In this document: one piece after another, positions 1 through 17,895 of the stretch
How the letters are laid out: every line of letters begins with the position of its first letter
How positions within the stretch are numbered: position 1 is the stretch's first letter
IMG/VR virus record: IMGVR_UViG_2526164632_000031
Source of the DNA: a virus
Taxonomy: Duplodnaviria > Heunggongvirae > Uroviricota > Caudoviricetes
Reading direction: 5' to 3' (one strand)
DNA length: 18,314 nt
The notes under the pieces: generated by a model
Databases searched by the model: none
What the model saw: the letters and a program-made list of their open reading frames with translations, nothing else
Told to the model about the DNA's origin: nothing
Program-made: the position numbers and the translations under genes

Positions 1-953
<953 letters not shown>

Positions 954-1027
954 GCACAGTTCAACGCATTACGTTGTAGATCGGTATTCTGGTCATTTGT
1001 TGATACGCGTACATAGCCAATAAGCAT
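954..1027 (-). pseudogene. Serine recombinase / DNA invertase (Pin/Gin-like) N-terminal fragment, disrupted by the IS
   Basis: Minus-strand ATG at 1027 preceded by GGGAGA RBS; translation MLIGYVRVSTNDQNTDLQRNALNCA matches the conserved N-terminus of Gin/Pin invertases (catalytic Ser in VRVST), then diverges into IS sequence and hits a stop at 938-940. Confidence 0.65.
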
Positions 1028-1084
1028 GGTAGGTCTCCCTGACAAAAGCAGGAATGATGCCATTTGCTCGTTATTTCTGCATTT

Positions 1085-2042: not shown

Positions 2043-2294
2043 CTAACATGATGCTCTGACTCGCAATTCATCCAGCAGTTTATCATTTCCCATAATGTCA
2101 CTAACCCTCATCGGTAAAAAAATTGCCTTTCGACCATTACGATACATCATTGATTTTGGGGTTTCAGGGAAGTAATCCATTTCGACTATAACTGACAGGT
2201 CATCACGACGTATGACTGCGTATTTGCTACTAAATAGTCTCTTTATTTTTTCCACGATGCCTCCAGGTTTATAAGTACAAACGGTTATATCCAC
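2043..2294 (-). CDS. Small hypothetical phage protein (positional equivalent of Qin rem)
   Basis: 83-aa ORF between hok and the DUF1367 gene, same strand; identity not verifiable. Confidence 0.4.
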   Translation of the reverse strand: MDITVCTYKPGGIVEKIKRLFSSKYAVIRRDDLSVIVEMDYFPETPKSMMYRNGRKAIFLPMRVSDIMGNDKLLDELRVRASC

Positions 2295-2444
2295 ATAGAG
2301 ACAAAAATATTAATCTGAAAAATATTTATTTCACGCCGTATATTTGATTGTTTAATGTGCAGGTACAATGACTTTTATTTTTTGTTGTGTATATAATCAA
2401 ATATATGGTTATTTTTCACCCTGCGCATTCAGCGCGCAACAAAA

Positions 2445-2462
2445 AACCCGCCGAAGCGGGTT
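2445..2462 (-). terminator. Rho-independent terminator downstream of hok
   Basis: Minus strand reads AACCCGC-TTCG-GCGGGTT followed by TTTTTGTTG; lies about 70 nt 3' of the hok stop. Confidence 0.6.
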
Positions 2463-2532
2463 AAGTGCGGGTGCGTTGAGGATGCCTGACACATCAGAGG
2501 TGGCGGGAGATTACTCTCCCGCCTAGTCACTC

Positions 2533-2688
2533 TTACTTCTCAGATTCGTAGTCCACGAAGACAGCAACCTCCGTCTGGCCGGTTCGGATTCGTACCTCGC
2601 AGAGGTCTTTCCTCGTTACCAGTGCCGTCACTATGACGGTTAAACAGATGACGATAAGGGCGATTAACATCGCCTTTTGCTGCTTCAT
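2533..2688 (-). CDS. hokD: Hok/Gef family type I toxin (HokD/RelF-like)
   Basis: Translation MKQQKAMLIALIVICLTVIVTALVTRKDLCEVRIRTGQTEVAVF... is a canonical Hok membrane peptide; the ORF track extends it in frame to 2745, but the conserved Hok start is the ATG at 2688. Confidence 0.85.
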   Translation of the reverse strand: MKQQKAMLIALIVICLTVIVTALVTRKDLCEVRIRTGQTEVAVFVDYESEK

Positions 2689-2900
2689 AGCCTGCTTCTC
2701 CTTGCCTTTCGGCACGTAAGAGGCTAACCTACATTTGTGAGACATAGATTGGGCCTCAGATTAATGTTAAGCGTCTTGTAGGACGCGTAATGTTAACTGG
2801 GGCTTTTCTCTATCTGCCTTTTGGTGTTCATGCCTGAGGCAGATAGCCTCAAGCACCCGCAGCAATTCTAACTATCCAATAGATCAATGCCAACTTCTTT
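2689..2900 (-). promoter_or_regulatory. Structured hok mRNA leader region (possible mok/sok-type control region)
   Basis: Several stable inverted repeats (2771-2787 GCGTC..GACGC; 2810-2846 CTATCTGCC..GGCAGATAG; 2834-2850) immediately 5' of hok on the minus strand. Confidence 0.35.
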
Positions 2901-3245
2901 TCCTGCAACATCTCTCATCATAAGTGACCAAAATTCATCCAATCAGCACAAAAGAAACATTTAAAGCGTGAATGCTACCGAACGTTCATTTCAATTACAT
3001 CGTTTTGATTTTTAACAGTTTTTACCTCAACAAATCAAATGGCATTAGCATTCATCATGGAAGAAAGACTGATAAAAATGATCATTTTCAATGACTTATG
3101 ATCACACCGGGTATTGCCAAGTCATTCCTTTTACGCCAGGATACCCACAAGTGAGTAGTCGAGGAGAGTTTGCCAATTTTTGCGATATAAATTTCAATGT
3201 CCGAAGAACCATTAATTGTTAATTGATTCTGTATAAGGTATTAAC

Positions 3246-4343
3246 ATGACAATTTCATATATTCCTATTCTGAAAGCGAAACGTTCTGAGTTATCAGCTT
3301 TATCGCAGCTATCCATTGAAAAGAAATCAAAAATTTTGCCATTACTCGAAATTGAACCAGTGCCAATTGACCCTGATTCAGGTATTGCCTTAAAGAGTTA
3401 TAACGAGACTCTTATAGAGTTCGGAAAGAAAGTCTCAAAATCTTGCTCAGATATGCAAGGTGTTTATATTGATGGATTATTAATTGAAGAGCATTTTATT
3501 TCTCCTGAAGATCATTACCCTATAATAAATGCGGTTAATCAAGTTAGAGATATGGGGATAAGAGTTATTCCTGTCAGTTCACCAACTCGCCCATCTAACT
3601 ATAAAGGAGCGATTGATGAATTAATGCAGAATGAAATATGCTTGAGATTAACCACGTTAGATCTGGTTAACCCACAATTAATAACGCATTACATTAATCA
3701 TCTGGGAATTCCTTTATCAAATATTGATATAATTATTGACTTAAGAGATGAGTTAACCGAGGATAAACTTAATTCCGGCGAACTATATACTTTGGCAATG
3801 GGATTGATAAACAATCTGGCGCACCTCAATGAATACAGAAAAGTGATTCTTTCTGGGGGTTCATTTCCTACAGATCTCAGTGATATTTCTGTTGGTCTAT
3901 ATTCTCAACCTCGAATCGAGTGGATTTTATGGCAGAGTTTAATGAATAGAAAAGAACTTGCCAGAAATGTGATTTATAGTGATTATGGAGTACAGCACCC
4001 CGACTTTAATAGGCTTTCGACGCGATTCCCTAGCGTATCTGCCAGCGTCAGATACTCTGGAGATAATGACTTTTGGGTATTTCGAGGAAGAGTAGCTAAT
4101 CGCTTTGGTTATGAACAATATGGTAAACATAGTGAGGATATTCTTGCTCATCGAGAATATTCAGGGCCTACATTCTGTGCGGGAGATAGAGACATAGAAT
4201 ATTATGCAAACGAGTATCAAGCCTACAAAGCCAATCCCTCTGGTAACTATAAATTTGGTAGCCCAGAGGTATGGCGTAGGATTGGGCAAAACCATCACAT
4301 AACTAAGGTTGTTGAGCAACTCGCCACTCTTTACGGGCTTTAA
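3246..4343 (+). CDS. Uncharacterized cargo protein with Beta-protein / sce7725-like N-terminus
   Basis: 365-aa ORF, AAGG RBS 8 nt upstream, AT-rich codon usage; N-terminus MTISYIPILKAKRSELSAL resembles the Y-[IV]-P-[IV]-L-K-x-K-x-x-E start I associate with the Beta_protein (PF14350) / sce7725 family. Confidence 0.8.
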   Translation: MTISYIPILKAKRSELSALSQLSIEKKSKILPLLEIEPVPIDPDSGIALKSYNETLIEFGKKVSKSCSDMQGVYIDGLLIEEHFISPEDHYPIINAVNQVRDMGIRVIPVSSPTRPSNYKGAIDELMQNEICLRLTTLDLVNPQLITHYINHLGIPLSNIDIIIDLRDELTEDKLNSGELYTLAMGLINNLAHLNEYRKVILSGGSFPTDLSDISVGLYSQPRIEWILWQSLMNRKELARNVIYSDYGVQHPDFNRLSTRFPSVSASVRYSGDNDFWVFRGRVANRFGYEQYGKHSEDILAHREYSGPTFCAGDRDIEYYANEYQAYKANPSGNYKFGSPEVWRRIGQNHHITKVVEQLATLYGL

Positions 4344-4881
4344 GTTTAACTCGAACAGCTTCACGAAGCTCGCCAACATCCATACTATTGGCGAGTTTTG
4401 ACCATAAGACGCGTTTAGGTTTATTTTTCAAATTCTGTAGCTCCCCTACATCACTTAATAGGGAAAGCAATTCATCTTTCCAAAGAAGCATTGTTAAGGA
4501 AAGTTTGTCCACTTGTGGATTCAACTTGCTAGTTCGAATTGTTTTTAAATGGATACCTTGCCGTGCACCTTGCGTAACTTGCTTTATCCCCCACCATGAT
4601 GGAACTATGCTTAAAGCATCATAAAGATGGCAATCAGAGACAACCAACGTTACTTTATCCATCACTGATGAGTAATGTTGCACCTGCGCTGGTAATCTGA
4701 GCAAGTTATCACTTTTGCTCTTCAACTCATAACCATGTATAAGCCCATTGATCACTGCTATATCAGCTCTGCTAGCCCCCAGATTCATCGTAAACTCATC
4801 AATGATTAGGGTGTCAGGATCTTTATGATGATCTCTCAAAATCTTGGCATGCACAGCCTTTCTTACATCAATGTCTCTCAT
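4303..4881 (-). CDS. Uncharacterized cargo protein with PD-(D/E)xK nuclease-like motif (sce7726-like)
   Basis: 192-aa ORF; LIIDEF ... ASRADIAVING ... HGYELKSKSD gives an acidic residue then D-x(n)-E-x-K spacing typical of restriction-endonuclease-fold nucleases. Confidence 0.8.
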   Translation of the reverse strand: MRDIDVRKAVHAKILRDHHKDPDTLIIDEFTMNLGASRADIAVINGLIHGYELKSKSDNLLRLPAQVQHYSSVMDKVTLVVSDCHLYDALSIVPSWWGIKQVTQGARQGIHLKTIRTSKLNPQVDKLSLTMLLWKDELLSLLSDVGELQNLKNKPKRVLWSKLANSMDVGELREAVRVKLKARKEWRVAQQP

Positions 4882-10267: not shown

Positions 10268-10662
10268 CGGAATACCTTATTACTGGTTGTGTGAGAACTC
10301 CAGTATACCACCGAGCCTGAAGTGGTAAAAAGACAGGCGCACAACACGAAGGCGCATTTCCGGTATTCATAAAGAGTCGGTCTTGTCTGTTAAATTTAAA
10401 TGGTGGGAGTGCGCCTCCGGTTGTAAATAACGACATTGCTATGTGTAGTCTTTGGCGGCATCAGTTCTACTCCGTGGCTGCCCTGTCGCCCCTTTTTAAA
10501 GTGAATTTTGTGATGCGGTGAATGCGGCTAAGCGCACGCGGCACAGTTAAAAGCATCAGTGTTATGGGTGGATTATCCGGCGTTAATTGTTAACTGGTTA
10601 ACGTCACCTGGAGGCACCAGGCACCGCATCGACAAAATTCATTTGTAAAAATGGAGATAATT

Positions 10663-15775: not shown

Positions 15776-15970
15776 ATGCGGTATGAAAAAGTCAAACCAT
15801 GTCCGTTTTGTGGTTGTCCATCAGTAACGGTGAAAGCCATTTCAGGATATTACCGCGCAAAGTGTAACGGATGCGAATCCCGAACCGGCTATAGTGGAAG
15901 TGAAAAAGAAGCACTCGAAAGATGGAATAAACGAACTACTGGAAATAATAATGGAGGTGTTCATGTATAA
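15776..15970 (+). CDS. ralR: Lar-family restriction alleviation protein (RalR-like)
   Basis: 64 aa from ATG 15776; MRYEKVKPCPFCGCPSVTVKAISGYYRAKCNGCESRTGY zinc-finger typical of Lar/RalR. Confidence 0.8.
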   Translation: MRYEKVKPCPFCGCPSVTVKAISGYYRAKCNGCESRTGYSGSEKEALERWNKRTTGNNNGGVHV

Positions 15971-16151
15971 AATTACTGCCACTATTGAAAAGGAAGGTGG
16001 CACTCCTACTAACTGGACAAGATATTCAAAATCTAAATTAACGAAATCAGAATGCGAAAAAATGCTCTCAGGGAAAAAAGAAGCAGGCGTTTCCAGAGAG
16101 CAGAAAGTAAAGCTGATAAATTTTAATTGCGAGAAACTTCTGTCCTCGTGA
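15963..16151 (+). CDS. YdaC-like small protein
   Basis: 62 aa from ATG 15963 (GGAGGTG RBS); position between ralR and xis as in Rac. Confidence 0.5.
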   Translation: MYKITATIEKEGGTPTNWTRYSKSKLTKSECEKMLSGKKEAGVSREQKVKLINFNCEKLLSS

Positions 16152-17581: not shown

Positions 17582-17895
17582 TTTTAACGTAAATGGATTG
17601 TTAAATGTATTTTGGTTGTGATATAACCAAAAAAGACCGGAATACAGAAATTCGAGTAAATTTCGGGGAATTTCGGGGAGACGTTTACAACTGATTGATT
17701 TTAAATACAATTAAAAAAGACCGAATACGATTCCTGTATTCGGTCCAGGGAAATGGCTCTTGGGAGAGAGCCGTGCGCTAAAAGTTGGCATTAATGCAGG
17801 CTTAGTTGCCTTGCCCTTTAAGAATAGATGACGACGCCAGGTTTTCCAGTTTGCGTGCAAAATGGTCAATAAAAAGCGTGGTGGTCATCAGCTGA
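17582..17895. other. Prophage/host junction region containing the int-proximal attachment site (core not identified)
   Basis: Non-coding; direct repeats AAAAAAGACCG(G)AATAC at 17629-17645 and 17713-17728; tandem AATTTCGGGG x2 at 17659-17678. Confidence 0.4.
17713..17745 (-). terminator. Hairpin plus T-tract (minus-strand orientation)
   Basis: GACCGAATAC-GATTCCT-GTATTCGGTC (10-bp stem) preceded on the plus strand by AAAAAA, i.e. followed by TTTTTT on the minus strand. Confidence 0.4.

Follow-up and report, generated by a model that had tools for sequence, protein, structure and literature searches.

The hok toxin gene of the viral sequence IMGVR_UViG_2526164632_000031 raises the question of how such a gene is controlled when relBE are not beside it. 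In K-12 the homologous hokD (relF) stands behind relE in the prophage Qin. [quoted passage not shown] We refer to the whole stretch of DNA that was analyzed, 18,314 nucleotides, as the window. Judged by its sequence, the region 2438-2893 of the window is a complete hok/mok/sok cassette of the hokW/hokD lineage, and we are highly confident that it is a member of the hok/sok family of type I toxin-antitoxin systems. This kind of cassette is already known. It is a textbook hok/mok/sok arrangement and not a discovery.

Setting and Identity of the hok Locus

The window is a Rac-like lambdoid prophage, as indicated by Rfam matches to RalA, DicF, and RyeA/SdsR and by a 100% match to two E. coli chromosomes. 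Strains such as FDAARGOS_1059 and O111:H2 12A equal the window at 100% identity across 2400-3300. In the Rfam scan, RalA, the antitoxin of the Rac ralR/ralA type I system, is found at 15969-16147 on the minus strand (223.8 bits), DicF at 10440-10491 on the plus strand (55.3 bits), and the overlapping RyeA/SraC and SdsR/RyeB at 17709-17852, on both strands, near the right end. The left end of the window contains an IS21-type IstB ATPase gene (105-887, plus strand; Pfam E = 8e−112). Beside the IstB gene is a short ORF (938-1063, minus strand) that begins MLIGYVRVSTNDQ, which we take to resemble the N-terminus of a serine recombinase and which may be a truncated gene. The hok cassette lies in the early region of the prophage, flanked by a beta/sce7726 gene pair on one side and by the DUF1367/YbcO genes on the other. 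Directly downstream of hok is an 83-aa ORF (2043-2294, minus strand), at the position held by rem in K-12 Qin and in Rac-SA53. We rejected this ORF as a homolog of K-12 Rem because there is no similarity between them. It has no Pfam or NCBIfam match, and RefSeq places a shorter 70-aa hypothetical protein at the same site.

A preliminary description of this DNA had reported a hok toxin locus with an intact reading frame, and the frame is indeed intact. Hok is encoded by 51 codons at 2533-2688 on the minus strand, with a Shine-Dalgarno sequence, AAGGAG, at 2703-2698. The protein matches Pfam HOK_GEF (E = 4.3e−23; 81 bits; cut-off 22). Its identity is 100% to HokW and 92% to K-12 HokD. No PADLOC model matches Hok, and the NCBIfam Hok models give scores under their cut-offs, so that the assignment is based on Pfam and on direct identity.

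The ORF list also contains a 70-codon ORF at 2533-2745 (minus strand) that is in frame with hok and consists of MSHKCRLASYVPKGKEKQA followed by Hok. This is mok, and its geometry equals that of the annotated mokW of 933W, mok of Rac-SA53, and mokC of K-12. The mok frame reads across the hok start, an arrangement in which translation of hok is probably coupled to that of mok. An in-frame mok might be regarded as an oddity. We rejected this idea, as mokW, mokC, the Rac-SA53 mok, and one R1-type plasmid copy are likewise in frame. In some other hok copies, a one-base shift puts mok out of frame.

The Tyr47 codon of hok lies within the sequence CUACGAA (2546-2552, minus strand), which is predicted to form a 7-nt loop on a weak 4-bp stem. 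CUACGAA contains TACG, the motif edited by TadA. In hokC, hokD, and hokE, such editing by TadA changes the corresponding Tyr codon to Cys (PMC5630033). K-12 hokD has UUACGAA at its Tyr47 site.

A covariance-model search had been named beforehand as the check that could overturn the hok/sok reading, and it was positive. In the Rfam scan of the whole window, RF01794 ("sok antitoxin") matches over the full length of the model (1-157) at 2858-2683, with 121.7 bits (E = 9e−28) compared with a gathering score of 59. Because this match lies on the hok strand and stops at the hok AUG, the model in effect describes the leader of the hok mRNA. The claim that relBE are absent also stands. Searches of the whole window with relB and relE (tblastn) gave a best E-value of 2 or worse, and hok is not part of a relBE-hokD operon. 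The gene upstream of it is a divergent gene of the beta family.

The hok Promoter, mRNA, and RNA Pairings

A consensus scan places the hok promoter at 2865-2893 on the minus strand. It consists of a −35 hexamer TTGGCA (2893-2888), a 17-nt spacer, and a −10 hexamer TAGAAT (2870-2865). With 10/12 consensus matches, it is the best of three promoter-like sites in 2300-3400. A −10 of the TAGAAT/TATAAT/TATGAT type ends 6 nt before the conserved 5′ end GGGUGCUUGAGG, and this spacing is common to the window, 933W, Rac-SA53, K-12 hokC, hokB, the R1-type plasmid locus, and many IMG/VR copies. Based on this conserved spacing, transcription of hok probably starts at about 2858.

The conserved cassette begins at 2870, which is the first base of the −10, and the −35 is supplied by the adjoining upstream DNA. 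The −35 varies by context: it is TTGGCA in the window (where the promoter scores 10/12), TTGGCG in other contexts, and TTTGCG in 933W. Since the −35 is taken from flanking DNA, the strength of the hok promoter may depend on the context of insertion.

The full-length hok mRNA, taken from the start of the Rfam model at about 2858 to the T-run of the terminator, would be about 421 nt long (2438-2858, minus strand). Folding of the stretch 2858-2441 gave z = −7.8. The tac box GGGUGCUUGAGG forms the 5′ end of the mRNA (2847-2858, minus strand), and the fbi box CCUCAACGCACCC lies near its 3′ end (2469-2481, minus strand), complementary to tac except for a bulged C. This tac-fbi pairing is part of the minimum-energy fold of the full-length mRNA, and the energy of the duplex is −21.5 kcal/mol. 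When the boxes of the window, hokB, and R1 are compared, the cognate tac-fbi duplexes are the most stable. In the window, 933W, and R1 alike, the distance from the 5′ end to fbi is 374-378 nt. The IMG/VR copies all have the same tac box, which is in part a selection effect, since the motif was required when the copies were trimmed.

The tac box has an alternative partner, the ucb box AAGCCCC (2799-2805, minus strand). When the 5′ 60 nt are folded alone, they give a tac-ucb stem of −26.8 kcal/mol that corresponds to helix 1 of the Rfam consensus. For the whole 3′-trimmed RNA, a local 5′ hairpin takes the place of the tac-ucb stem in the minimum-energy fold, so that refolding to tac-ucb is partly supported.

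Three further hairpins are found on the minus strand. The antisense-target hairpin of the hok mRNA (2753-2803) is predicted in all folds, and its complement is the terminator hairpin of Sok. It is 16 nt longer in the window than in the Rfam consensus. The 3′ stem-loop (2502-2523), seen both as an inverted repeat and in the fold, has a perfect 9-bp stem (2502-2510/2515-2523). The intrinsic terminator (2438-2462) consists of a hairpin (2462-2445) followed by a T-run and is the 3′ limit of the conserved cassette. The preliminary description had drawn attention to both 3′ hairpins and to strong inverted repeats in the leader. We recovered all of these, the leader repeats at 2799-2819/2837-2857 and 2831-2840/2846-2855 and in the long hairpin at about 2753-2803. 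It had also suggested that the leader be compared with tac, ucb, and fbi elements, and all three boxes were identified as described above.

A Predicted Sok Antisense RNA

A candidate plus-strand promoter for a short antisense RNA, which had been suggested as something to look for, emerged at 2702-2730 from alignment with homologs. It has a −35 hexamer TTGCCT (2702-2707), a 17-nt spacer, and a −10 hexamer TAACCT (2725-2730). These hexamers align with TTGCGC/TATCCT of the R1-type locus, TTGCCT/TAACCT of 933W, and TTGACC of hokC, and also with hokB. The match to consensus is too weak for the consensus promoter scanner, and the site fell below its detection. Mutation of the homologous −10 element abolished expression of sokW (Takada et al., 2021; PMC8621323).

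The Sok RNA would be about 71 nt long (2737 to ~2807, plus strand), as transferred from the annotated sokW (AF125520, 58664-58734). Annotated sokW and K-12 sokC each begin 8 nt inside mok. In the predicted Sok, the 5′ tail would be single-stranded and cover the mok start, followed by a long hairpin and by the U-rich tail GGGGCUUUU. The hairpin folds with z = −5.75. The positions of the Sok start and promoter are those expected from homology and spacing, and expression of the RNA is a prediction. To the question of whether a sok-like antisense RNA exists, the sequence answers yes, in the form of a putative plus-strand Sok gene homologous to sokW and sokC.

The hok promoter has 10/12 consensus matches, compared with 7/12 for the sok promoter. 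In the textbook picture of hok/sok, the sok promoter is strong and the hok promoter is weak. Thus, the promoters of the window appear to be the reverse of that picture.

Conservation of the Cassette and Alleles of the Sok Tail

We collected 103 copies from IMG/VR with a search pattern covering both the sok promoter and the hairpin. Together with the window, these gave 94 distinct sequences. Canonical pairs make up 98.9% of the tac-fbi positions in the 94 copies, and the sole common change in fbi is the bulged base, which is C or U. In the 5′ hairpin, 98.2% of pairs are canonical, with double changes from A-U to G-C and from C-G to U-A. The value is 99.5% for the antisense-target hairpin, part of which was fixed by the search pattern, and 96% for the 3′ hairpin, where compensatory changes (G-C to A-U) are found.

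Several K-12 chromosomal hok loci are inactive, and the window locus might be a relic of the same type, with decayed regulation and a toxin that is never made. Damaged copies do occur. In strain 2014C-3655 an IS3 is inserted in the hok leader (L008, 3109-4271), equivalent to about window position 2723. Strain LD91 (L011, ~750-1157) has an IS end after the 3′ hairpin, at the same point as IS186 in K-12 hokC, strain NWU_3 has a damaged hok Shine-Dalgarno sequence and a damaged fbi, and K-12 hokD is cut off on its 5′ side. In addition, chromosomal hok loci tested earlier mediated no post-segregational killing, as cited in a preprint (bioRxiv 10.1101/2025.08.07.668861). Against a relic, the window cassette has no IS element or truncation. 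All of its boxes are intact, tac and fbi are fully complementary, and the toxin is identical to the experimentally active HokW. Furthermore, its mok/Sok-tail allele is the second most common among the 94 distinct copies. We therefore regard decay of the window copy as very unlikely and treat the locus as a complete hok/mok/sok cassette.

One part of the cassette is variable. Across the 94 distinct cassettes, the highest entropy, 0.5-0.9 bits, is found over the mok start and mok codons 2-5, the 5′ recognition tail of Sok. The remaining mRNA is mostly at 0.0-0.3 bits, with about 0.5 near the 3′ hairpin. Because the search pattern kept the flanks of the Sok-tail block constant, the contrast in entropy with the flanks is overstated. 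Within the block of about 20 nt at 2753-2734 (minus strand), the prophage hok cassettes fall into about six discrete, multiply substituted allele classes. The corresponding N-termini of Mok are MLYTRR, MSHKCR (the window), MLDTCR, MLNTCR (HokW and hokC), MNGKSR, and MRHIE. We tentatively suggest that these classes may be specificity groups that prevent cross-repression among the several hok/sok copies in a cell, an idea that we hold to be possible and rather doubtful. If true, each prophage would keep its own independent addiction or lysis switch. On whether copies within one genome differ in class, the single same-genome pair of IMG/VR contigs (L050 and L084) is uninformative, as both have the same Sok-tail allele.

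The AT-Rich Spacer and the beta/sce7726 Pair

The preliminary description gave the locus about 500 bp of AT-rich, highly structured upstream sequence. The AT-rich part of this claim holds for 2894-3245, a stretch of 352 bp with 34.7% GC, compared with 45.6% for the whole window. The claim of one structured AT-rich block does not hold, and neither does a leader of about 500 bp. With transcription starting at about 2858, the hok leader would be 170 nt long (2689-2858). It has 48% GC and folds with z = −3.9. In the spacer at 2894-3245, we found no excess of folding over shuffled sequence (z = +1.14 and +0.90 for the two strands), and a structured leader or small RNA at this location was rejected on these values. 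An Rfam E-value scan of 2250-3350 returned RF01794 alone above threshold, with no sub-threshold match wholly inside the spacer. Weak matches to rsmX, a snoRNA, and P9 were discarded, as they are far under their gathering scores and overlap known hok hairpins. The absence of ORFs of at least 60 aa upstream was as reported, the largest in 2746-3245 being 43, 40, and 36 aa. The spacer has no annotation in any of the listed genomes.

Among 5426 E. coli genomes, the spacer is present in 93 genomes and 94 places, equal to the numbers for the beta/sce7726 pair (3246-4881). The GC contents of the beta gene (37%) and the sce7726 gene (41%) are similar to that of the spacer. The equal counts, the similar GC, and the lack of folding and of Rfam matches indicate that the spacer lies outside the hok locus and belongs to the neighboring beta/sce7726 cassette. 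We propose that it has no role in the hok RNA. That the whole of the roughly 500 bp up to 3245 is a long structured leader or regulatory region, replacing relBE and controlling the toxin, is very unlikely: the region is AT-rich with no ORF of at least 60 aa, and the −35 hexamer of the hok promoter does sit in non-cassette DNA, but the −10 is conserved 6 nt before the 5′ end in all homologs, homology to other hok loci ends at 2870, and 2894-3245 has no excess folding, no Rfam match wholly inside it, and the genome counts of the beta/sce7726 pair.

The spacer presumably holds the promoter of the beta/sce7726 pair. Consensus and relaxed scans for a beta-gene promoter in the spacer gave one plus-strand candidate with 8/12 matches (3073-3102), which is unconvincing. 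The beta gene (3246-4343, plus strand) encodes a Beta_protein (Pfam PF14350, E = 8e−52) and matches the PADLOC model PD-Lambda-2_C (E = 3e−41). The sce7726-family gene (4303-4881, minus strand) is matched by NCBIfam (E = 2e−56) and by the PADLOC model "cll" (E = 2e−28). The two form a convergent, overlapping, AT-rich pair that adjoins hok and points away from it. From these model matches, the pair looks like anti-phage defense cargo of the prophage. The spacer should be credited to this pair, whose genes match anti-phage defense protein models.

Proposed Mechanism

The mechanism of the window copy can be inferred from the R1 paradigm and from the work on hokW. For the hokW/sokW locus, whose toxin is identical, 3′ processing, cutting of the Sok-hok duplex by RNase III, and killing upon Sok decay have been shown (PMC8621323). 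Gerdes and co-workers reportedly worked out the 3′ processing, the decay of Sok, the mok-hok coupling, and the killing at the membrane in R1. By analogy, the hok promoter (2893-2865) would drive the 421-nt mRNA, and its 5′ tac would pair with the 3′ fbi to give a closed mRNA that is neither translated nor bound by Sok. Slow 3′ trimming would strip fbi, and the 5′ end would refold into the tac-ucb form, exposing the mok start and the antisense-target hairpin. The short-lived Sok (plus strand, ~2737-2807) would pair with the exposed region and block translation of mok and, through coupling, that of hok as well. The Sok-hok duplex would then be cut by RNase III. Once Sok is no longer replenished, Mok and Hok would be made. 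Loss of the prophage or a shut-off of transcription could be the trigger, and DNA damage with prophage induction, as shown for hokW, could be a further one. Hok would enter the inner membrane, and the cell would be killed or lysed. Biologically, the window copy might serve to retain the prophage, to assist lysis upon induction, or to abort infection.

Comparison with Known hok/sok Systems

The closest system with experimental data is hokW/mokW/sokW of 933W and Sakai Sp5 (AF125520). HokW arrests growth, and sokW, expressed from its own promoter, represses hokW, partly with a need for RNase III and Hfq (Takada et al., 2021; PMC8621323). Treatment with mitomycin C reduces sokW and increases HokW, and release of Sp5 phage falls by half when the hokW/sokW locus is deleted (PMC8621323). 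Besides the identical Hok, the 933W and window DNAs are 94.4% identical over window positions 2870-2459. Both have the 70-codon in-frame mok and the same sok promoter hexamers, hairpin, tac, and fbi. The two differ in the block at the mok start that specifies the Sok 5′ tail, with Mok beginning MLNTCR in 933W and MSHKCR in the window, and in the −35 of hok, TTTGCG in 933W and TTGGCA in the window. The 933W sequence also diverges right after fbi, with no terminator hairpin there, and its cassette has a different position in the phage genome and different neighboring genes.

Rac-SA53 (KU052037) resembles the window in its neighborhood. It has the sce7726-type gene, the beta gene, the spacer, mok/hok, DUF1367 (irsA), ybcO, and Q. 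Its DNA is 96% identical over 92% of a 901-nt query from the window, and both mok and hok are annotated. Unlike the window, its Hok has a C-terminus of the K-12 HokD type (…EIAVFTVYEPEE), and its mok/Sok-tail allele is MLDTCR.

The hokC (gef)/mokC/sokC locus and the R1 hok/sok (parB) locus share the order of elements and the in-frame mok with the window. The −10 is likewise placed 6 nt before the 5′ end, sokC starts 8 nt inside mok, and the tac-fbi pairing is kept with lineage-specific compensatory changes. These sequences are more distant from the window, and HokW and R1 Hok have 44% identity (PMC8621323). K-12 hokC is interrupted by IS186, and the window cassette has no such insertion.

K-12 hokD, in the prophage Qin, keeps the Shine-Dalgarno sequence, the 3′ hairpin, fbi, the terminator, and the toxin gene. 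It shares only 2702-2438 with the window. The alignment stops 14 nt upstream of the hok ATG, and beyond this point K-12 has the end of relE. K-12 hokD is therefore without the hok promoter, tac, ucb, the mok start, and the sok promoter and RNA, all of which the window has. The preliminary description had taken the K-12 relBEF operon as the standard against which the window lacks genes. The distribution of the cassette does not agree with this. The block from the −10 hexamer to the terminator (2870-2438), which is the block usually shared, has a match in 4720/5426 complete E. coli genomes, with a median of 2 matching places per genome and up to 10, and the full cassette is annotated in 933W and Rac-SA53. 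In an evenly spaced listing of E. coli matches, the cut-down K-12 form was the sole best match in 8/60 records. Since K-12 hokD retains no more than 2702-2438, joined to relE on its upstream side, it is normal for such a locus to be without relBE. In RefSeq, genomes of this kind have only the toxin ORF annotated, frequently as hokD, and the mapping of mok, sok, tac, and fbi supplies what the annotation lacks. The picture is thus corrected: the complete form is that of the prophage cassette, and K-12 relBE-hokD is a derivative of it that was cut on the 5′ side.
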